A DNA stretch of 32,000 nt. Origin: Rhodobacter capsulatus SB 1003 (GTDB lineage Bacteria; Pseudomonadota; Alphaproteobacteria; Rhodobacterales; Rhodobacteraceae). The notes under the pieces were generated by a model. That model was not told the DNA's origin, searched no databases, and was given only the letters and a program-made list of their open reading frames with translations. This document shows, one piece after another, positions 2,799 to 31,765 of this stretch (within the stretch, counting starts at the first letter, position 1; every line of letters starts with the position of its first letter). The stretch covers positions 2,430,001 through 2,462,000 of the forward strand of contig NC_014034.1 in assembly GCF_000021865.1 (NCBI RefSeq). Reading direction: 5' to 3'. Position numbers and translations under genes: made by a program.

Positions 2799-3938
2799 TC
2801 AGGCGGCCAGAGCGGCCAGGACGCGGGCGATGTCGGCCTCTGCCAGATCGGTGAAACAGGGCAGCCCGAGCAGCCGCGCCGCCACATCGGCGCTGACCGG
2901 CAGCGGATCGCACGAAAGCCCGGCATAGGCCGGATGCGCCGAAAGACCGCCGCCATACCAGGCGCGAAAGTCGATCCCCGCCGCATGCAGCCGCCCCGCC
3001 ATCGCCGCCGCCTGCCCGGCATCACGCGCCTCGACCAGCGCATAACAGGCCGAAATCTCGGGCGCGGTCCAAAGCCCTATCCCCGCCGCCGCCCCCGCCC
3101 GCGCATAGGCGGCGGCGACCCTGTCCCACTGCGCGCGCTTTTGCGCAAAACCGTCCAGCTCGGCCAGCGCCACCGCCGCCGCATATTCGCTCATCTTGCC
3201 ATTCAGCCCGGCAACCTGCGCCTCGCGCGACAGATAAAAGCCGTTGTTGAGACCCTTGTAGGCCTCCTGCAGCAAAAGGGTGTCGCGCGACAGCACCAGC
3301 CCGCCCTCGCCGCAGCCGAAGGCTTTGGTGGCATGCAGGCTCACCGCCAGCGGGATCGAGCGCGGCAGATCCCCCCCCGACGCCATCAGCCCGTCCAGAC
3401 AGGCCGCCGCATCGATCACCACCGCGATCCCGGTCTCGTCGTGGAAATCCTGCCAGCCCTGCAGGTCGATCGCGCGGCCATAGGGCGCCACCGGCAGCAC
3501 CAGCCCGACCTCGGCCAGCCGCGGATGCCGACGCAGCGCCGCGGGCTCCATCGCCCAGCTGGCGGGGTCGATATCGACCAGATGGCAATCATAGCCGCAA
3601 GACAGCGCCGCCCCCGCCGTCGCGACGAACGTATAGGCGGGCAACAGGCACAGGCGCCCGCGCGCGCGCGACAGGCCGCGCGCCGCGCGGATCGCGGCGA
3701 CCAGCGCCATCGTGCCGGTGCTGCAGGAAATCACCCCGGTCCCGCCCAGCCCCAGCCGCGCCGCCATCCGCGCTTCGAGCTGCGCCACCAGCGGGCCGTG
3801 ATTGGAATAAATTCTGCTCTCGTCGATCTGGCGCAGATATGGCACAAGGGTTTCTGTCCGCGGCAAGGCAGGCCGGGCAACCGGAAGCCGCGGCCTGCCT
3901 TCGGGCGGCGGCGGGCCGGGCGGTGTCGGGGTCAGCAT
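2799..3938 (-). CDS. DegT/DnrJ/EryC1/StrS-family PLP-dependent sugar aminotransferase
   Basis: This is the C-terminal 379 aa of the 851-aa track ORF. The N-terminus LPVARPALPRTETLVPYLRQIDESRIYSNHGPLV is typical of the family. The PLP-lysine motif SLHATKAFGCGEGG is present. The only canonical in-frame start upstream of the conserved N-terminus is the ATG at 3938. No SD is visible there, so the start is uncertain. Confidence 0.85.
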   Translation of the reverse strand: MLTPTPPGPPPPEGRPRLPVARPALPRTETLVPYLRQIDESRIYSNHGPLVAQLEARMAARLGLGGTGVISCSTGTMALVAAIRAARGLSRARGRLCLLPAYTFVATAGAALSCGYDCHLVDIDPASWAMEPAALRRHPRLAEVGLVLPVAPYGRAIDLQGWQDFHDETGIAVVIDAAACLDGLMASGGDLPRSIPLAVSLHATKAFGCGEGGLVLSRDTLLLQEAYKGLNNGFYLSREAQVAGLNGKMSEYAAAVALAELDGFAQKRAQWDRVAAAYARAGAAAGIGLWTAPEISACYALVEARDAGQAAAMAGRLHAAGIDFRAWYGGGLSAHPAYAGLSCDPLPVSADVAARLLGLPCFTDLAEADIARVLAALAA

Positions 3939-3953
3939 GAGGGGAGCTCTAGA

Positions 3954-4622
3954 TTGGACATCATTCTGTTCGGTGTCGGCCAGATCGCCGAGGTCATGGC
4001 ACATTACGTTCAGCAAGATCCGCATCTCAATCTGGTGGGCTTCACCGTTGACCGCGCCTATCTGCCGCCCTCGGGAGAGTTCAAGGGCCTGCCCGTCGCC
4101 GCATGGGACGAAGCCGACACCCTTTTCCCCCCCGGGAAGATTCGCATCCTCGGGCCTGTCAGCTATCGTGGCAACAACACGTTTCGCCGGGACCGTCATT
4201 TCGAGGCGAAAGAACGGGGCTACAGCTTCGCCAGCTACATCCACCCCTCCTCGCATGTGAGCGGCGCCGAGATCGGCGAGAATTCGGTGATCCTCGAGGA
4301 CTGCACCGTGCAGCCCTATGCGAAGCTTGGCACAGGATCGATCCTGTGGAGCAAGGTCCATATCGGCCATCATGCGCAGATCGGGGATTTCTGTTTCTTT
4401 GCCTCTTTTTGCGGCATCGCGGGCAATGCGCGGGTGGGCGATTGCACCTTTTTCGGCGGCCAGACCGGATTGGCCGACAATCTCAGCGTCGGATCGGGCT
4501 GCATCATCGGCGCGGGCACGCCGGTGACCGAGAACATCCCCGATGGCGCGCTGGCGATCTCGCGCGGGGTGCGCGTCCTGCCCAACGGGGCGCGGCGGTT
4601 CGCGCGAAGGCTGCTGGGCTAG
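3954..4622 (+). CDS. NeuD/PglD-like sugar N/O-acetyltransferase (left-handed beta-helix, hexapeptide repeats)
   Basis: This is the C-terminal part of track ORF 2934..4622. A Rossmann-like N-terminus (DIILFGVGQIAEV) is followed by hexapeptide repeats (IGENSVILEDCTV..LGTGSILWSKVHIGHHAQIGDFCFF..IAGNARVGDCTFFGGQTGLADNLSVGSGCIIGAGT). A TTG at 3954 lies 7 nt after GAGGGGAG. The exact start is uncertain. Confidence 0.75.
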   Translation: MDIILFGVGQIAEVMAHYVQQDPHLNLVGFTVDRAYLPPSGEFKGLPVAAWDEADTLFPPGKIRILGPVSYRGNNTFRRDRHFEAKERGYSFASYIHPSSHVSGAEIGENSVILEDCTVQPYAKLGTGSILWSKVHIGHHAQIGDFCFFASFCGIAGNARVGDCTFFGGQTGLADNLSVGSGCIIGAGTPVTENIPDGALAISRGVRVLPNGARRFARRLLG

Positions 4623-4640
4623 CGGCCGGGGCGATCGGGC

Positions 4641-5291
4641 ATGACGACCGTCGCGGTGATGCAGCCCTATTTCTTTCCCTATGGCGGCTATTACCGGCTG
4701 CTGGCGGCGGCGGATGTCTTTGTCATCCTTGACTGCGTGCAGTTTCCCCGCCGCGGCCGGGTGCATCGCTCTTCCCTGCCCGGCGCGGGCCGCTGGATCA
4801 CCCTGCCGCTCGAGCCCGCCCCGCGCGACAGCCTGATCAGCGCGATGCGCCTTGCCCCCGATGCCGCCGGACGGCTCTGGCCGCAATGCCGCAAGCTGCC
4901 CGGGCCGATGCCCGCCGACACCCCCCTGCGCCGCGCGGTGCTGGATCTGCTGCAGACCCCCGAGGGTGCGCTGGTGCCCTATCTCGAACGCTCGCTGCGG
5001 ATCGTGGCCGAGGCGCTCGGTTTCGATGGCCGGATCTGCCGCGGCAGCGACCTTGAGCTGCCCGCGGGGCTGACTGCGCAAGAGCGCATCCTCGAGATCG
5101 TGCGCAGGCAGGGCGGAACCCGCTACATCAACGCGCCGGGCGGCACCGCGCTTTACGATCGCGCGGTGTTTTCGCGCGCGGGCATTGATCTGAATTTCCT
5201 GCCCCCCTATACAGGAAAACATACATGTTTTCTGCCCGCCCTGTTCGAACGGACCGTGGCGGAGTTGCGTGCAGACATCTTGGAAGGCTGA
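4641..5291 (+). CDS. WbqC-like family protein (unknown role in amino-sugar/O-antigen pathways)
   Basis: The N-terminus VAVMQPYFFPYGGYYRLLAAADVFVILDCVQF matches the WbqC-family signature as I remember it (MQPYFFPYIGYF). It sits next to an aminotransferase and an acetyltransferase, which is usual for this family. Confidence 0.7.
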   Translation: MTTVAVMQPYFFPYGGYYRLLAAADVFVILDCVQFPRRGRVHRSSLPGAGRWITLPLEPAPRDSLISAMRLAPDAAGRLWPQCRKLPGPMPADTPLRRAVLDLLQTPEGALVPYLERSLRIVAEALGFDGRICRGSDLELPAGLTAQERILEIVRRQGGTRYINAPGGTALYDRAVFSRAGIDLNFLPPYTGKHTCFLPALFERTVAELRADILEG

Positions 5292-5308
5292 CCCTTCCGA
5301 TCCGTGTG

Positions 5309-5318
5309 CCCCCCCCCC
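5309..5318. repeat. Homopolymeric C10 tract in the wbqC-like/methyltransferase spacer
   Basis: Direct read: gtg cccccccccc gaaaa. It is the longest homopolymer I found in the window. It lies 27 nt upstream of the ATG at 5345, in frame with the upstream-extended ORF 5225..6262. Confidence 0.95.
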
Positions 5319-5344
5319 GAAAATCCCCGAGCGGAGAAGCGTCC

Positions 5345-6262
5345 ATGGCCCCAAGCGACCCCGGTGACACCGTGATGCCGCCCGCCTTCGTCGATCCGCT
5401 CGGCCATGCGCCGCTGCTGCCCGGCGCCGACGGCCTTTCGCTGATCGCGCCCGGCAGCGGCACCGTCTGGCCGGTCAGCGCGGGGATCGCCGATCTGGTG
5501 CATCCGCGGCCGCAGCCGACTGACCCGGCGCCGCCGCAATTCGACCGGCCCCTGCCCGCGGTCGAGGAAGCCTTTCTGCGCTGGACCTTCCGCGCCTTCG
5601 GCGGCGACGAGGACACGCTGCGCCGCAAGGTCATCGACAAGCTCGATCTGGCGCCGGATGCGGTGGTGCTTGACAATGCCTGTGGCGGCGGGGCGAACAC
5701 GCGCCTGCTGCAGGAACGGCTGCCGCGCGGGGTCTTGTGCAGCACCGACATTTCGCTGGAACTGCTGGCGCATGGCGCGGGCCGGTTTGCCACGGACACC
5801 GGCTGCCGCACGATCTGGTGCGGGGCGAATGCGCTTTATCTGCCCTTTCCGGATCAAAGCTTCGATGCGGTGCTGAGCACCGGCGGCTTCAACCAGTTCG
5901 GCGATCCGGTGCGGGCGATCGCCGAGATGACCCGCGTGACCCGCCCCGGCGGCCGCATCGTCATCGCCGACGAGGGCTATGCGCCCTGGCTGCAACAGAC
6001 GCTGACCGGGCAGATGGTGCTGAACGACAATCCGCTGATGGCCTGCGCGCCGCCGCTGCAGGCGCTGCCCGCCGTGGCGCAGGAGGTCCGGCTCGAATGG
6101 CATCTGGGCAACGCCTATTACTGTCTCGACTTCCGGGTCGGGGCGGCGCCGCCCGCGGTCGATCTTGACCTGCCGCACGAGGGGCTGCGCGGCGGCACGA
6201 TCCGCAGCCGCTTCGAGGCGATGCGGCAACGGCACGAAACGGAAACCGGGGCCGACCGATGA
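5345..6262 (+). CDS. Class I SAM-dependent methyltransferase with a Trm112-like (Cys-less) N-terminal extension
   Basis: Motif I VLDNACGGGANT. Post-I/II region ALYLPFPDQSFDAVLS. Motif RPGGRIVIAD. The ATG at 5345 is preceded by GGAGAAG. The earlier ATG at 5225 would overlap the upstream gene by 67 nt. Confidence 0.8.
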   Translation: MAPSDPGDTVMPPAFVDPLGHAPLLPGADGLSLIAPGSGTVWPVSAGIADLVHPRPQPTDPAPPQFDRPLPAVEEAFLRWTFRAFGGDEDTLRRKVIDKLDLAPDAVVLDNACGGGANTRLLQERLPRGVLCSTDISLELLAHGAGRFATDTGCRTIWCGANALYLPFPDQSFDAVLSTGGFNQFGDPVRAIAEMTRVTRPGGRIVIADEGYAPWLQQTLTGQMVLNDNPLMACAPPLQALPAVAQEVRLEWHLGNAYYCLDFRVGAAPPAVDLDLPHEGLRGGTIRSRFEAMRQRHETETGADR

Positions 6263-6918
6263 GCGACGAGACCACCGGCCGCGGCAAGGTGTTCTGCATC
6301 GGCTTTCCGAAGACCGGCACCACCTCGCTGGAAACCGCGCTGCACCGGCTGGGCTACAAGGTCTGCCGCGGCGCTTCGAGCAACAATCACAGCAACTTCC
6401 TGATGGCGCTGCAGGTGCTGGGCGACACCGACGAGATCGCCCGGGTGATCCGCCATTTCGACGCTTTCGCCGACATGCCCTTTGGCGGCACCGATCTTTA
6501 TCTGTGGCTCTCGCGCCGCTATCCCGAGGCGCGGTTCGTACATACCCTGCGCGCGCCCGAGGCCTGGTATCAGTCGCTGCTGAACCAGCTGGCGAAGGTG
6601 GGGGCCAGCTCTGACGCCCCGCTCGAGGCGCTGCATGCGGCGGGGGGATATGGCGCGGCGATGATCGTGCGCCGGGTCTGGGGCATCACCGACCCGCTGA
6701 GCCAGAAAGACCGCCTGCTGCGCCACTATCACGATCTGAACGCCGCCATCCTGGCGCATTTCGAGGGCTGCGCGAATTTTCACGCCTTCAACCTGACCGA
6801 GGAACGGGACTGGACCTCGCTGTGCCGGTTTCTGGACAAGCCGGTGCCGGATCTGCCGTTCCCGCATGACAACCCCGGCCAGGGCAAGGCTGCGCGCGCC
6901 GTGCCGCAGAGCGGATGA
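6259..6918 (+). CDS. Sulfotransferase family protein (PAPS-dependent, Sulfotransfer_4-like)
   Basis: 5'-phosphosulfate-binding loop GFPKTGTTSLETAL at the N-terminus. 3'-phosphate-binding-type motif RFVHTLRAPEAWYQS. ATGA start/stop overlap with the methyltransferase. Confidence 0.75.
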   Translation: MSDETTGRGKVFCIGFPKTGTTSLETALHRLGYKVCRGASSNNHSNFLMALQVLGDTDEIARVIRHFDAFADMPFGGTDLYLWLSRRYPEARFVHTLRAPEAWYQSLLNQLAKVGASSDAPLEALHAAGGYGAAMIVRRVWGITDPLSQKDRLLRHYHDLNAAILAHFEGCANFHAFNLTEERDWTSLCRFLDKPVPDLPFPHDNPGQGKAARAVPQSG

Positions 6919-6922
6919 CGCG

Positions 6923-7903
6923 ATGACCCCGAACGACACGGCCCGCACGCGGCCCCCCGGCCCCCCCGCCTGGTTCATCGTGACCAGCCACGGCTGGAGC
7001 GCAAGCCACTGGCTCGCCCACAACCTGACCCGGCATCCGCAGATCGCCTGCCTGCATTCCAGCGCCGCCCTGCCTGCCGATCAGCCCGAGCCCTATGACA
7101 TCGCGGAGCTGATGGCGCGGCAGGATTATGCCCGCCTCTTCGCGCTGATCGCGCAGTTCCGCGCGGGCTATGGCACGCGCGCGACCACCCCGCCCGCCGA
7201 TCTTTACCGCCCGCTGGAGGCGCGGACCGACGCGCGGCTGATCGGTTCCGTCCACAGTTTCCGGCTGCGCGACCTGCCGGCGCTGGCCCCCGATCTGACC
7301 CCGCCGGACCGCGGGCTGCGGATCGTCAACCTGATCCGGCACCCGGTCAATCTGGTCAATTCGGGGGCGGGCCAGTTCGAGCTGACCTTCCGGCTTGATC
7401 TGAACGAATTGCAATGGATCACCCGGCGCATCGTCGAGACCGGGCTGGACAGCTTCGAGCGGATCGCGGCGCGGCACCGGATCTGCCCGGGCGATCCCGA
7501 GGTTCTGGCCTTTTTCGGCGCCTGCGTCACGCTCCGGGGCCTTGCCGCGGATTTTGCCGCCCGCGACCGGCTGCGGGAGCTGGGGCTGAGCGGCTATGCG
7601 GGATCGGTCCGGCAAGAGGATGTCACCCGCGATCCGGCGGTCTTTCGCGATCTGCTGACGCGGCTCGGCCCCGGCGCCGTCGATTGCCCGCAGGCCTATC
7701 TGGATCAGGTCTTCGCCGACCCCCGCCGCAATGTGCACAATGCCCGGCCCCGTCCGACCGACCCGGCCGCGCTGTTCGCCGACTGGGCCCCCTGGCAGCA
7801 GGAGGCCTTTGCCTTCTGCCTTGATGCCTTCGGGCTGCGCGCGCCCTATCAGGCCGAGGGCTATGCGCTCGAGATGGTGCCGCCGGGAAAGGATCTCGCA
7901 TGA
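6923..7903 (+). CDS. Hypothetical protein, possibly a divergent sulfotransferase fold with a degenerate PAPS loop
   Basis: The ATG at 6923 lies 4 nt after the preceding stop. WFIVTSHGWSASHWLAHNL occupies the position of the PSB loop but lacks the Lys/Arg-Ser/Thr-Gly-Thr-Thr signature. RIVNLIRHPVNLVNS resembles the sulfotransferase 3'-PB motif. There is no other recognisable domain. Confidence 0.55.
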   Translation: MTPNDTARTRPPGPPAWFIVTSHGWSASHWLAHNLTRHPQIACLHSSAALPADQPEPYDIAELMARQDYARLFALIAQFRAGYGTRATTPPADLYRPLEARTDARLIGSVHSFRLRDLPALAPDLTPPDRGLRIVNLIRHPVNLVNSGAGQFELTFRLDLNELQWITRRIVETGLDSFERIAARHRICPGDPEVLAFFGACVTLRGLAADFAARDRLRELGLSGYAGSVRQEDVTRDPAVFRDLLTRLGPGAVDCPQAYLDQVFADPRRNVHNARPRPTDPAALFADWAPWQQEAFAFCLDAFGLRAPYQAEGYALEMVPPGKDLA

Positions 7904-8808
7904 CGCTTGTCGCCAATATCCAGGTCGGCAACGAAGTCGAGCTGATCGAACAGCACATCGCCTATCATCTGGCGCTGGGCGTGGACGGGTTCGTGATCGC
8001 GGACATGGCCTCGGTCGATGGCACCTCCGAGATCCTGGACCGCTACCGCGGCGACCGCCGCTTCGTCCTGCGCAAGTTCGAGACCGAGGCGCTGATCAAT
8101 GCCGAGGGCGTGCATACGGCCGCGGTCGGGCGCTGGATGCTGCAGGCCACCCGCGACCACTTTGCCCCGGACTGGGTGATCCGGATGGATGCCGACGAGT
8201 TTCTCTATCCGGCGGGCGATCTTGGCGCCTGCCTTGCGGCGCTCGGCCCCGGGGCCGCCTTTCAGATCGCGCGGCGCAACGTGATCTTCGCCGAGGGGCA
8301 GCCGATCCCGGCGATCCCGCAGACGCAAGATGCCCTTGCCGCCTTCGAGATCGTGGCGCAGCCGGTCAGGACCTCCCGGCGGGACTATGCCGGCGACGAC
8401 AGCCTGCCGCTGATCCTGACCGAGGTCGGCCCGAAGGTGATCGCCCGCGCCGATCAGGTTGCGGCCTATGCGACGGGCGGGCATGGCACGCTGGACCGCG
8501 CGGGCGAACGGATCGAGGCGCCCGCGGCCAGGGGGCTGCTGCTGGTGCATTTCTGGTTCACCACGCCGGGCCGCTTTCTGCGCAAGGCGCGGTTCACCGC
8601 CGAGACCGAGGCGCTTTTGCGCCACCATCCGCAGGCGCCGAAGGGCTGGCAATGGTCGCGCTGGGCGGGGCTGGCGCAGCCCGGCGACGCCGAAAGCGCG
8701 GCGGCGGTCATGCGCGAATATCAGCGCCAGTTTCCCGACGCCGCCCGTCTTGACGCGCTGCGCGGCGCCGGGGTCGTCTGCGCTGTCGCATCGCATGGTG
8801 CCCTATGA
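7900..8808 (+). CDS. Glycosyltransferase family 2-like protein (Glyco_tranf_2_4-type)
   Basis: N-terminus VANIQVGNEVELIEQHIAYHLALGVDGFVIADMASVDGTSEIL and DxD-type motif IRMDADEF. ATGA overlap with the upstream gene. Confidence 0.65.
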   Translation: MTLVANIQVGNEVELIEQHIAYHLALGVDGFVIADMASVDGTSEILDRYRGDRRFVLRKFETEALINAEGVHTAAVGRWMLQATRDHFAPDWVIRMDADEFLYPAGDLGACLAALGPGAAFQIARRNVIFAEGQPIPAIPQTQDALAAFEIVAQPVRTSRRDYAGDDSLPLILTEVGPKVIARADQVAAYATGGHGTLDRAGERIEAPAARGLLLVHFWFTTPGRFLRKARFTAETEALLRHHPQAPKGWQWSRWAGLAQPGDAESAAAVMREYQRQFPDAARLDALRGAGVVCAVASHGAL

Positions 8809-9764
8809 TGGCGCGGCGGATGTCTTCGCTCTGGCGGCGTCAGGGCCGCATTCTTGCCCCGGCGGATCTTGACGGGATCCGGCTTGTGCAATGCCCGACC
8901 GGCTGGCAGCTGCCGAACGGGCTTTTGCGCATCGCCGCCGCCTGCCGCAACGCTTCGAATGTCTCGATCCTGCAGGTGATGGATTGCGACCCGGCGCAGG
9001 GCATGAAGATCGTGCGGCCGCCGCGGATCGAGCCCGTCGCGCTGGAGGCGATCGCGCGGGGCGGTCTGGCGGGCATCGGCCCCTGCGACGCGCTTTGGGA
9101 CGGCGCGGAGCTGCTGCTCGCGACCTCCTCGATCACGCTGCGCGGGCGCCTTTACGATGCCGGGATCGAGGTGATGACCAGCCGCGATGGCGGCACCACC
9201 TTCACGCCGCCGCGCGGGCTGCTCGGCCCGGCCGAGAACGGCGGCTTTCCGGTCTCGATGCCCTGCCTGCGGCGGCTGGCCGGGGGCGACTGGCGGATGT
9301 GGTTCACCGCCTTCACCGAATGGCGCCCCGAGGTGCAGCCGACCCCGGACGCGCGCTATTGCATCCGCTCGGCGCGCTCGGCGGACGGGATCACCTGGAC
9401 GGTGGACCCGGCCCCGGCGATCGCGCGCGGTCCGGGCGAGGCGGGGCTGGCGCGGCCGACCGTTCTGGAAGGGCCCGAGGGGCTGGAGATGTGGTTCAGC
9501 GCCCGCGGCCCCTATGCGCCGGAGGATCCGAGCCTGCGGCGGTACCGGCTCTGCCATGCCCGATCTGACGACGGCACGCAGTGGCAGCGCGCCGACGACC
9601 GGCACGGCTTTTGCAACCCGCCCGCGCCCGACGACTGGGACGGGCAGATGCAATGCTACCCCACCGTGCTGCGGCTGGCGGATGGACGGCAGGTGATGCT
9701 TTATTGCGGCAACGGCTACGGCGCGGCGGGCTTCGGCTGGGCAAGCCGCGAAACGCAGGACTGA
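8805..9764 (+). CDS. Hypothetical protein, predicted beta-propeller (Asp-box/BNR- or GH32/43-like)
   Basis: Three S-x-D-G-x-x-W/F motifs (SRDGGTTF ~aa126, SADGITW ~aa192, SDDGTQW ~aa254) at 62-66 aa spacing. Recurrent W-F/MWF strands. ATGA overlap with the glycosyltransferase gene. No obvious signal peptide. Confidence 0.55.
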   Translation: MMARRMSSLWRRQGRILAPADLDGIRLVQCPTGWQLPNGLLRIAAACRNASNVSILQVMDCDPAQGMKIVRPPRIEPVALEAIARGGLAGIGPCDALWDGAELLLATSSITLRGRLYDAGIEVMTSRDGGTTFTPPRGLLGPAENGGFPVSMPCLRRLAGGDWRMWFTAFTEWRPEVQPTPDARYCIRSARSADGITWTVDPAPAIARGPGEAGLARPTVLEGPEGLEMWFSARGPYAPEDPSLRRYRLCHARSDDGTQWQRADDRHGFCNPPAPDDWDGQMQCYPTVLRLADGRQVMLYCGNGYGAAGFGWASRETQD

Positions 9765-9766
9765 GG

Positions 9767-9782
9767 GCGGGCGGCTGCCCGC
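9767..9782. terminator. Short GC hairpin between convergent genes (possible bidirectional terminator)
   Basis: gcgggc-ggct-gcccgc (6-bp stem, 4-nt loop) in the 21-nt gap between the stops at 9764 (+) and 9786 (-). There is no U-tract. Confidence 0.25.
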
Positions 9783-9785
9783 GCC

Positions 9786-10550
9786 TCACAGGATCTCGCC
9801 GCCGTCGATCACCAGCGCCAGCCCGGTCACGAAGGAAGAGCGGTCGGAGGCAAGATAGACGATGCCCTCGGCAACCTCGGCCGTGCTGGCCCAGCGCCCC
9901 ATCGGGATCGTTTCGGCCACATAGGCTTCAAGCGCCGCGCGCCCGCCCATCTGGGTTTCGAACCCGGCATTGAAAGGCGTGTCGACAAAGCCCGGGCAAA
10001 GCGCGTTGAAGCGGATGTTTTCGCGCGCATAATCGGCCGCCATCTGGCGCACCATCGCCACCGCGGCATGTTTCGTCGTGGCATAGGAAATCATGCCGCG
10101 ATCATATTGGCAGCCGGAATTCGAGGCGGTGACGATCACCGATCCGCCGCCTTGCGCCCGCATCGGCGCCACCACCGCCTGCGCCAGCACGAAATGCGCC
10201 CGCACGTTCAGCGCCCAGGCCAGATCCATCTGCGCCGCGCTGACCTCTTCGAGCTTGCCGGGGATCTGGATCCCGGCGTGGGAATGCAGCACGTCCAGCC
10301 GCCCGTGCCGCGCCAGCACCCCCGCCACCACCGCCGCGATCGCCGCATCGTCGCGCACATCGAGCGCGGCACTTTCCGCCTGACCGCCCGCCGCACGGAT
10401 TTCCCCGGCGGTGGCGGCGGCCAGACCCGCGTCGAGATCGGTGACGACCAGCCGCGCCCCCTCGTCCGCCATCGCAATGGCGCCCGCGCGGCCAATTCCC
10501 GACCCTGCGGCGGTCACCAGCGCGACCCGCCCGTCCAAGCATCCGGTCAT
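9786..10550 (-). CDS. Short-chain dehydrogenase/reductase (SDR) family oxidoreductase
   Basis: TAAGSGIGRA cofactor motif. The NSG...YATTKHA catalytic region (YxxxK). PG...T C-terminal motif. AGGAGA SD. It lies 10 nt downstream of the permease gene stop, so it is probably the last gene of the transporter operon. Confidence 0.9.
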   Translation of the reverse strand: MTGCLDGRVALVTAAGSGIGRAGAIAMADEGARLVVTDLDAGLAAATAGEIRAAGGQAESAALDVRDDAAIAAVVAGVLARHGRLDVLHSHAGIQIPGKLEEVSAAQMDLAWALNVRAHFVLAQAVVAPMRAQGGGSVIVTASNSGCQYDRGMISYATTKHAAVAMVRQMAADYARENIRFNALCPGFVDTPFNAGFETQMGGRAALEAYVAETIPMGRWASTAEVAEGIVYLASDRSSFVTGLALVIDGGEIL

Positions 10551-31435: not shown

Positions 31436-31765
31436 TCAGCGGCCCAGGGCCCCGCGCAGCGCCCGCCCGGCCAAGAGCAGGATCACCAGCGAGAGCGCCG
31501 CCGCCCCCCCCGAGGCGAGGCCAAGCGCGGCGGGCAGGCTCCAGCCCGCCTGCTGCAGCTGCACGACGCTGGCCGCGAGGCCCAGCCCGATTGCCGCCAT
31601 GGCCAGCATCGTGGCCAGCAGGCTCAGCATCAGGCTGCCCAGGCCCAGACGCAGCCGCGCCTGCGCCTCGATCTGCCAGAGCCTCAGACGCAGCTGCGCC
31701 ATTTCCTGCGCCGCCAGACCGATCCGCGCCAGCAGCCACAGGGTTTCACGGACACCCGCGCTCAT
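31436..31765 (-). CDS. Small membrane protein, holin-X (Phage_holin_3_6)/YqjE-like
   Basis: 109 aa. An amphipathic N-terminus (LAAQEMAQLRLRLWQIEAQARL) is followed by two TM helices. It starts 3 nt after the upstream gene stop. There are no phage genes nearby. Confidence 0.45.
   Translation of the reverse strand: MSAGVRETLWLLARIGLAAQEMAQLRLRLWQIEAQARLRLGLGSLMLSLLATMLAMAAIGLGLAASVVQLQQAGWSLPAALGLASGGAAALSLVILLLAGRALRGALGR

Follow-up and report, generated by a model that had tools for sequence, protein, structure and literature searches.

A mobile eight-gene cassette in Rhodobacter capsulatus with predicted roles in amino-sugar acetylation, methylation and sulfation

Gene content of the locus

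In the present study, we analyzed a 32-kb window of the Rhodobacter capsulatus SB1003 genome (the whole stretch of DNA considered here, to which all coordinates refer) and describe a group of eight genes, designated g1 to g8, at positions 2799-9764, which we regard as a mobile cassette and as a candidate system for the decoration of a glycan. The eight open reading frames (ORFs) proposed in a first-pass annotation of this DNA were all recovered on the same strands and at the same positions in the ORF listing. They correspond to rcc02257 to rcc02264; these tags were inferred from one published pairing (rcc02246 = ADE85976), and exact protein look-ups span ADE85986 (KdpE) to ADE85995 (a short-chain dehydrogenase/reductase, SDR). 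The features of the locus, with predicted products and the source of each assignment, are as follows.

2799-3938, minus strand: g1, DegT/DnrJ/EryC1-family pyridoxal phosphate (PLP) sugar aminotransferase, 379 aa (rcc02257, inferred tag; Pfam PF01041)
3939-3953, no strand: spacer separating the divergent g1 and g2 starts, 15 bp (sequence reading)
3954-4622, plus strand: g2, hexapeptide (left-handed beta-helix) sugar N-acetyltransferase of the NeuD/PglD/VioB type, 222 aa, TTG start (Pfam Hexapep, TIGR03570)
4641-5291, plus strand: g3, WbqC-family protein, 216 aa (Pfam PF08889)
5309-5318, plus strand: C10 homopolymer in the g3-g4 spacer (sequence reading)
5345-6262, plus strand: g4, class I S-adenosylmethionine (SAM)-dependent methyltransferase, 305 aa (Pfam Methyltransf_11)
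6259-6918, plus strand: g5, predicted canonical sulfotransferase (Sulfotransfer_4) of the type using 3'-phosphoadenosine 5'-phosphosulfate (PAPS), 219 aa (Pfam PF17784)
6923-7903, plus strand: g6, divergent sulfotransferase-fold protein, 326 aa (AlphaFold2 (AF2) model and Foldseek)
7900-8808, plus strand: g7, GT-A fold glycosyltransferase (GT; Glyco_tranf_2_4), 302 aa, soluble (Pfam PF13704)
8805-9764, plus strand: g8, five-bladed beta-propeller, 319 aa, alternative start at 8820 (AF2 model and Foldseek)
9765-9785, no strand: GC-rich spacer between the convergent stops of g8 and the SDR gene, 21 bp (sequence reading)

Seven of the eight calls made in the first-pass annotation, all except that of g6, were supported by profile searches; the family assignments that held are DegT, NeuD/PglD/VioB-like, WbqC, Methyltransf_11, Sulfotransfer_4 and Glyco_tranf_2_4, and those of the aminotransferase, acetyltransferase, methyltransferase, sulfotransferase and GT are supported by family and fold. 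The g1 protein matched PF01041 (E 7.4e-49, 167 bits), carries the PLP-lysine motif SLHATK...GEGG, and has 3ju7, DesI (2po3), WbpE and perosamine synthase as its nearest solved structures. It reached none of the NCBIfam equivalog cut-offs for DesI, PseC, LegC, ArnB and WecE; since even the best scores were far below them (DesI, 104.5 bits against 650, followed by PseC, 94 against 423), the sugar and the nucleotide cannot be assigned from these models. The g2 protein exceeded the threshold of Pfam Hexapep (E 2.5e-15) and aligned over its full length with TIGR03570 (E 3e-37) at 128.1 bits, which is below the cut-off of 160.8 bits; its nearest solved structures are the perosamine N-acetyltransferase PerB, PglB, PglD and VioB. 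The g3 protein matched PF08889 (E 1e-30, 107.7 bits against a cut-off of 21.3 bits); a search of solved structures returned no relative, and nothing in the papers retrieved under the name WbqC pointed to a characterised function. The earlier description of g1-g3 as a "classic" trio consequently needs correction because the classic route consists of the aminotransferase and acetyltransferase only, WbqC being a family without known function. In an R. capsulatus strain with the locus-tag prefix ACTTAM, the WbqC product (P0009) is 117 aa in length versus 216 aa elsewhere, and the cassette may be damaged in that strain.

Regarding the transferases, g4 matched Methyltransf_11 (E 2.6e-16), and its nearest solved structures are the sugar O-methyltransferase RebM (3bus), MitM and a D-glucose O-methyltransferase. 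The g5 protein is predicted to be a canonical PAPS-type sulfotransferase: it matched PF17784 (E 9.6e-34, 117.5 bits against a cut-off of 22.8 bits), both the 5'-phosphosulfate loop FPKTGTTS (residues 16-23) and the 3'-phosphate motif R98...S106 are invariant in seven orthologues, and the search of solved structures placed 9kf1, SgdX2 and the schistosome oxamniquine sulfotransferase nearest to it. A single 524-aa protein with no internal stop combines g4 and g5 in both Cereibacter azotoformans and C. sphaeroides (L005/L027 3968-5542; L026 8437-10011). The g7 protein matched PF13704 (E 2.4e-12, 47.7 bits against a cut-off of 27.5 bits) and has a DxD motif (DADE within IRMDADEFLY), and a sequence search for solved relatives returned none.

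The g6 protein matched no Pfam or NCBIfam model. However, its AF2 model was confident (pLDDT 89.7), and the top 21 matches of this model in a Foldseek search against the PDB were all sulfotransferases (best E 1.4e-4, with modest TM scores of 0.4-0.5), including the sulfotransferase domains of olefin synthase and CurM, TPST, Teg14 and Stf0. An exhaustive profile search of 1.84 billion cluster representatives returned 787 family members at E <= 1e-3, and 10 of 38 sampled relatives matched Sulfotransfer_3 weakly (best E 1.3e-5). The g6 motif LIRHPVNLVNS, which corresponds to the 3'-phosphate-binding motif, follows the family pattern [LV][IV]R[HN]P..[VL].S, in which R139 is invariant and S147 is present in 37 of the 38 relatives; the two are 8 residues apart, a canonical spacing shared with the Sulfotransfer_3 domains of neighboring genes. 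E232 is also invariant and H45, H111, N270 and H272 are near-invariant. An hhalign comparison of the g6 family with g5 orthologues yielded nothing (probability 0.1%), and the g6 profile had no meaningful match among PDB sequences. The link between g6 and the sulfotransferases is thus made by the fold search, the weak Sulfotransfer_3 matches of its relatives and one local hhalign match, which is described later. The model and these matches agree with the earlier proposal of a sulfotransferase fold for the products starting at 6259 and 6923; g6 appears to be sulfotransferase-derived, and probably still binds a 3'-phosphoadenosine nucleotide.

The last protein, g8, had been called a propeller, and its AF2 model (pLDDT 93.7) and the structure search specify five blades. 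The top TM scores, 0.66-0.69, were obtained with glycoside hydrolase (GH) family 130 mannoside phosphorylases and a mannoside synthase, whereas GH159 gave the best E-value; GH159, GH43 and sialidases fitted almost as well as GH130. A profile search against PDB sequences gave a GH130 match at E 5e-10; since it was partial and out of register (query 129-259 versus chain 15-149), it was not used for mapping catalytic residues. In Pfam, g8 matched BNR_2 alone, below threshold (E 0.014), and it carries three Asp-box-like S-x-D-G motifs and conserved arginines.

The cassette and the g6-g8 pair in other bacteria

The eight genes occur in the same order in six other hosts belonging to two alphaproteobacterial orders. 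In Allorhizobium pseudoryzae, the cassette is located on an 83-kb plasmid between IS66 and IS3 elements, in C. azotoformans and C. sphaeroides it adjoins transposase, IS21 and relaxase genes, and the further full-cassette hosts are Rhodobacter maris, Neotabrizicola and Fulvimarina; three of these hosts carry insertion sequences (ISs) next to the cassette, at one end or at both. The same gene order on the IS-flanked plasmid and beside the Cereibacter mobility genes lends strong support to the earlier description of the locus as a portable module, and the predicted movement of the cassette between bacteria as a unit is strongly supported. In five genera, g8 is directly followed by a gene for a B12-binding radical-SAM enzyme with DUF4070 (532-542 aa; L027 8407-10005, L028 12816-14444, and about 12.85-14.5 kb in L007, L008 and L009). 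This ninth gene is absent from R. capsulatus and from the Allorhizobium plasmid.

Relatives of g6 were detected in only 20 of 185,579 species genomes, and g8 was located within about 1 kb of the g6 relative in 18 of the 19 genomes that were assessable, the two being directly adjacent in nine. The genomes with this g6-g8 core include Calditrichota, Rhodothermales, Deltaproteobacteria, Verrucomicrobiales and Gammaproteobacteria. DegT and N-acyltransferase genes are usually present near the core, and WbqC is often found, co-occurring with g6 relatives at distant loci. At least 13 of the 20 genome loci, in addition to two metagenome contexts, encode canonical sulfotransferases nearby, and one distant locus, which also contains WbqC, DegT, sulfotransferase and GT genes, carries CysD-like, CysN/CysC-like and CysQ-like genes adjacent to the g6 relative. 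A role in sulfation is supported by this comparative context. Moreover, Wzm/Wzt-type exporter genes are present in two metagenome contexts of g6 relatives, one Wzt having a Wzt_C domain. A protein of 900-2600 aa with GT2, Sulfotransfer_3, GT4 and tetratricopeptide repeat (TPR) regions is encoded directly downstream of g8-g6 in four Pfam-scanned loci, and a fifth (L019) contains a large ORF that matched the same sulfotransferase profile as these giant proteins.

Members of the g6 family are also found in natural fusions, namely, Sulfotransfer_4-g6, Sulfotransfer_1-g6, TagF-like-g6-Sulfotransfer_1-TPR, Ankyrin-g6-Wzt_C, coiled-coil-g6 and g6-methyltransferase. The Sulfotransfer_4-g6 fusion P0144 (503 aa) is encoded at a locus with DegT, a UbiE-like methyltransferase, a hexapeptide acetyltransferase, WbqC and a further sulfotransferase. 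P0215 (L029 10001-12886) is a 961-aa protein with a coiled coil of about 570 residues and a C-terminal g6 domain, the architecture of which resembles a chain-length ruler, and its neighbors are Wzm/Wzt-type ATP-binding cassette (ABC) transporter genes, two Methyltransf_21 genes and a PhyH dioxygenase gene. No g8-g6 fusion was present among the 150 best family representatives.

Other proteins of this family have a different arrangement. In P0208, P0211 and P0219, an N-terminal g6-type domain precedes roughly 600 residues with no Pfam match, and P0220, P0231, P0259, P0261, P0262 and P0289 probably also belong to this set of approximately 800-970 aa. In Thalassotalea, a 417-aa Peptidase_S74 protein (L018 5067-6320) is encoded just upstream of a DegT-WbqC-acetyltransferase-g8-g6 run; the Peptidase_S74 domain is the intramolecular chaperone of endosialidase tailspikes.

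Organization and surroundings in R. capsulatus

GC content at third codon positions (GC3) is of the coding type in the eight genes (0.79-0.89). Comparison with R. capsulatus DSM 1710 gave ratios of non-synonymous to synonymous substitutions (dN/dS) of 0.16-0.50, and comparison with R. maris gave 0.13-0.25. All eight are under purifying selection and are real genes rather than chance ORFs. Reading of the junctions confirmed the ATGA overlaps claimed at 6259, 7900 and 8805 as well as the single 4-nt gap (CGCG, 6919-6922) that separates g5 from g6; the remaining gaps are 18 nt (g2/g3) and 53 nt (g3/g4). In the independent annotation of the Allorhizobium plasmid, g4/g5 and g6/g7 likewise overlap by 4 nt. 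The three overlaps suggest translational coupling, and the third of them depends on the start codon of g8: an alternative ATG at 8820 fits the 314-aa RefSeq product and would abolish the overlap at 8805, and homologues in Allorhizobium and Cereibacter are annotated at 319 aa. For g6, an in-frame ATG lies upstream at 6866, and deposited 326-aa products (P0078) agree with the start at 6923.

The divergent arrangement of g1 and g2, conserved in four genera, recurs with a spacing of 14-16 bp in DSM 1710, R. maris and Cereibacter and in the annotation of the Allorhizobium plasmid. Because the two starts are only 15 bp apart on opposite strands, both promoters would have to be located within the opposite or neighboring ORFs. 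The TTG start of g2 is preceded by the Shine-Dalgarno sequence GAGGGGAG. The C10 tract, 27 nt upstream of the g4 start, is C8 in DSM 1710 and absent from other genera, and could represent a slipped-strand site. A scan for promoters and terminators found no consensus of note inside the locus and no terminator or T-run in the 9765-9785 spacer, an Rfam search of the window returned no family match, and none of the eight proteins contains a hydrophobic segment (maximum KD19 of 1.62).

The cassette is positioned, as had been noted, between unrelated units, with kdpD/kdpE upstream at a distance of 23 bp from kdpE, and the convergent SDR gene (21 bp from g8) and a Pot-like ABC importer downstream. 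The absence of 4,6-dehydratase, nucleotidyltransferase, flippase, polymerase and PAPS genes was likewise borne out, with no exporter gene either, among the genes called across the window. With no gene for an initiating transferase, a polymerase, a flippase, an ABC exporter or nucleotide-sugar precursors among those called, the 32 kb do not contain a complete O-antigen or capsule cluster. We asked whether the SDR gene (9786-10550) might be a ninth member and rejected this: it is convergent, is not part of the cassette elsewhere and diverges like the flanks, and its only matches elsewhere, in locus L007, are about 31% identical and more than 3 kb away. A 26-kb sulfonate/isethionate-assimilation locus (rcc02222-rcc02247), which includes cysE2 (rcc02246), has been described about ten genes upstream of the window; our initial tag assignment, rcc02242-47, was dropped because it belongs to that unrelated locus. 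In the literature searched, no paper was found that names six of the eight inferred tags (the query covered all except rcc02258 and rcc02264).

A strain-specific origin in R. capsulatus, which had been raised in the first-pass annotation, does not agree with synonymous divergence (dS) between SB1003 and DSM 1710, which is similar in the cassette (0.10-0.21) and in flanking genes (0.09-0.25). Considering this flank-like dS, a composition that is unremarkable, with GC3 resembling that of the flanks, and the absence of repeats bounding the cassette, we rejected a recent genomic island in this species, mobility having been seen in other hosts only; we regard the cassette instead as an old resident of R. 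capsulatus. Its center evolves faster than the flanks at the protein level. The proteins of g5, g6 and g7 are 85-88% identical between the two strains versus 95-98% for the flanking pot genes at similar dS, and the dN/dS values of g5-g7 (0.35-0.50) are the highest in the cassette and exceed those of the flanks.

The upstream neighborhood differs in the sister species R. viridis, in which kup, not the cassette, follows kdpE. At this R. viridis locus (L024 1-2358), the kdpFABCDE operon, the KdpE product of which is more than 90% identical to that of R. capsulatus, is preceded by TniB/TniQ transposition genes. The kdp operon itself may therefore be mobile. Near the far end of the window, an ORF at 31436-31765 on the minus strand (109 aa) has a GC3 of 0.92 and no Pfam match at E <= 1e-5.

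Possible function and relation to known systems

We consider it probable that the cassette, which we read as self-contained and as encoding eight soluble, cytoplasmic enzymes, makes an N-acetylated amino sugar and methylates and sulfates a cell-surface glycan, the backbone and export genes of which are located elsewhere in the genome. Judging from its family and PLP lysine, g1 would aminate a nucleotide-linked keto-sugar, most likely a 4-keto-6-deoxyhexose supplied by housekeeping dehydratases. The new amine would then be N-acetylated by g2, as its family suggests, with the possible assistance of g3, and g7 would transfer the sugar to the acceptor glycan, perhaps together with g8; as a GH130-like propeller, the latter might act on a sugar-1-phosphate or else trim or transfer a residue. 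The sugar or its neighbor may be O-methylated by g4 and O-sulfated from PAPS by g5. The g6 protein, which we take to be derived from Sulfotransfer_3, may work alongside g5, being either a second transferase of an unusual kind or a partner that binds a nucleotide or a substrate. Some g6 relatives occur beside Wzm/Wzt genes, and others form fusions with sulfotransferase, coiled-coil, Wzt_C or TagF-like domains; the product may therefore decorate the end or a side chain of a glycan that is assembled at the cytoplasmic face, as in an ABC-transporter-dependent pathway. We infer the surface-glycan target, the order of the steps, the substrate sugar, the acceptor and any role as a chain cap; concerning g6 and g8, the best supported view is that of a conserved accessory pair.

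Several observations weigh against this interpretation. Acceptor, exporter, initiating-transferase and PAPS-synthesis genes are all absent from the window, so that the window does not identify the target. Judging by their names, small-molecule enzymes are among the solved structures nearest to g5 (the schistosome oxamniquine sulfotransferase, together with the natural-product enzyme SgdX2) and to g4 (RebM and MitM), and the ninth gene of other hosts encodes a B12 radical-SAM enzyme, a type common in natural-product pathways. The donor-loop Lys/Arg is not found in g6: in the local hhalign match (E 0.0035, probability 9%), the Arg of the PRAGST loop aligns with W25, a column occupied by W, Q, M, N or H in 30 of the 38 relatives and by R in only two. 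The earlier proposal of two sulfotransferase-fold proteins stands as far as the fold is concerned; two sulfations cannot be assumed because g6 lacks the donor-binding residue. The GH130 model PF04041 is not matched by g8, and the likeness is at the fold level only. In the literature searched, no report was found that R. capsulatus glycans carry sulfate or amino-dideoxy sugars, and searches on R. capsulatus lipopolysaccharide (LPS) composition and PAPS genes gave nothing usable.

The same observations bear on the main rival explanation, in which the product is a soluble or secreted small molecule, such as a sulfated and methylated amino-sugar or pseudo-oligosaccharide natural product, an osmolyte or a signal, with g7 and g8 joining two small units. 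The eight proteins are without exception soluble, and linked genes for a carrier lipid, a flippase or an exporter are found neither in R. capsulatus, Cereibacter and Fulvimarina nor at the P0144 locus; the enzymes nearest to g5 (the natural-product enzyme SgdX2 and the oxamniquine sulfotransferase) and to g4 (RebM, MitM and the glucose O-methyltransferase), together with the radical-SAM enzyme added in most hosts, point in the same direction. However, distant g6 relatives adjoin Wzm/Wzt exporters and multi-domain GT-sulfotransferase-TPR proteins or are fused to Wzt_C or TagF-like domains, which are features of polymer assembly, and scaffold genes typical of natural-product pathways (polyketide synthase, non-ribosomal peptide synthetase and cyclase genes) are absent from every locus inspected. 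We regard a small-molecule product as unlikely on this evidence, while giving it some weight.

Glycosylation of a protein (a flagellin, pilin, S-layer protein or adhesin) with a modified amino sugar, in the manner of bacillosamine- or pseudaminic-acid-type O-glycosylation, appears highly improbable. The relationship of g2 to the pilin-glycosylation acetyltransferases PglB and PglD is in its favor, a soluble GT-A enzyme encoded without lipid-carrier genes would suit direct cytoplasmic glycosylation, and two GT41 (OGT-like) proteins are encoded beside a g6 relative, WbqC and DegT at a distant locus; nevertheless, GT41 occurs at that one locus only, the remaining contexts indicate polysaccharide assembly, and none of the alphaproteobacterial hosts has a flagellar, pilin or S-layer gene close to the cassette. 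We also give very little credence to a decaying or silent remnant in R. capsulatus, which would have lost the ninth gene and have no partner pathway in this host. Such a remnant would account for the absence of the radical-SAM gene, which five other genera carry directly after g8, for the 117-aa WbqC fragment in one strain, and for dN/dS values of 0.35-0.50 in g5-g7 that exceed those of the flanks, but SB1003 and DSM 1710 both have the eight ORFs intact, the dN/dS values are well below 1 whether taken within the species or against R. maris, and the Allorhizobium plasmid copy likewise has no radical-SAM gene.

Returning to the modification of a surface glycan, a broader proposal, which we put forward as speculative and rather unlikely, is that the g6-g8 pair forms the core of an undescribed multi-phylum machine that installs, with canonical sulfotransferases, a sulfated amino-sugar cap or side group on glycans that are built at the cytoplasmic face; in some lineages, the machine would be tethered by a coiled-coil ruler and read by modules of the Wzt_C type. 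What is new in the present study is the fixed mobile gene combination, the g6 family and the g6-g8 pairing, whereas glycan sulfation, methylation and amino-sugar acetylation are known. For neither the g6 nor the g8 family did the libraries searched yield a curated model or an above-threshold solved relative, and the natural fusions, which show which enzymes work together, provide starting points for biochemistry. The genetic origin of sulfate groups on bacterial polysaccharides is poorly mapped, and the cassette offers a compact eight- or nine-gene unit that moves between genera. R. capsulatus is a model for gene transfer agents (GTAs), the adsorption of which depends on surface polysaccharide. 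A cassette that may add sulfate charge and methyl groups to a surface glycan is, thus, a direct candidate modifier of GTA or phage adsorption, biofilm behavior and serotype, in a strain that is amenable to genetics. The capsule receptor locus reported for the R. capsulatus GTA (RcGTA), rcc01081-88, is located elsewhere in the genome than the cassette.

Among known systems, sulfation has been studied in rhizobia, in which NodH acts with NodPQ on the Nod factor and LpsS acts on Sinorhizobium LPS. The cassette similarly combines a PAPS-type sulfotransferase with, in our interpretation, a sugar of a surface or secreted glycoconjugate; it also resides on mobile DNA, one copy being on the Allorhizobium plasmid, and CysD and CysN/CysC genes adjacent to a distant g6 relative are reminiscent of NodPQ. 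Unlike the rhizobial systems, it brings its own amino-sugar, methylation and transfer enzymes with no PAPS genes in the R. capsulatus window, and its g5 is a Sulfotransfer_4 protein. The view expressed in the first-pass annotation that bacterial sulfation is essentially rhizobial or mycobacterial is too narrow since reports of sulfated surface polysaccharides are more widespread; sulfated capsules, with gene clusters, are reported for marine Cobetia and Vibrio.

The pairing of a DegT aminotransferase with a NeuD/PglD/VioB-type N-acetyltransferase is shared with VioA/VioB (viosamine), Per/PerB (perosamine) and PglE/PglD (bacillosamine), which are the solved relatives; the cassette differs from these in having no linked dehydratase or nucleotidyltransferase and in the divergent orientation of g1 and g2 across a 15-bp gap. 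The g8 protein is five-bladed and similar in size to the GH130 beta-mannoside phosphorylases and mannoside synthases, with which it gave its top TM scores of 0.66-0.69, and is distinguished from them by the lack of a PF04041 match and by its three Asp-box-like motifs and conserved arginines.

In Escherichia coli O9a, the kinase/methyltransferase WbdD, which has a coiled coil, is read by the C-terminal domain of Wzt in the termination and length control of the chain. The cassette may be compared with this system in that soluble cytoplasmic enzymes would add small groups, namely, methyl and, in place of phosphate, sulfate, and in that g6-family domains are fused to a coiled coil of about 570 residues beside Wzm/Wzt or to Wzt_C. 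The analogy is drawn from the relatives: coiled-coil and Wzt partner features are absent from the R. capsulatus window, and g6 has a sulfotransferase fold and is not a kinase. If the proposed g6-g8 machine is real, it would represent a sulfate-based counterpart of the methyl/phosphate chain termination of E. coli O9a.

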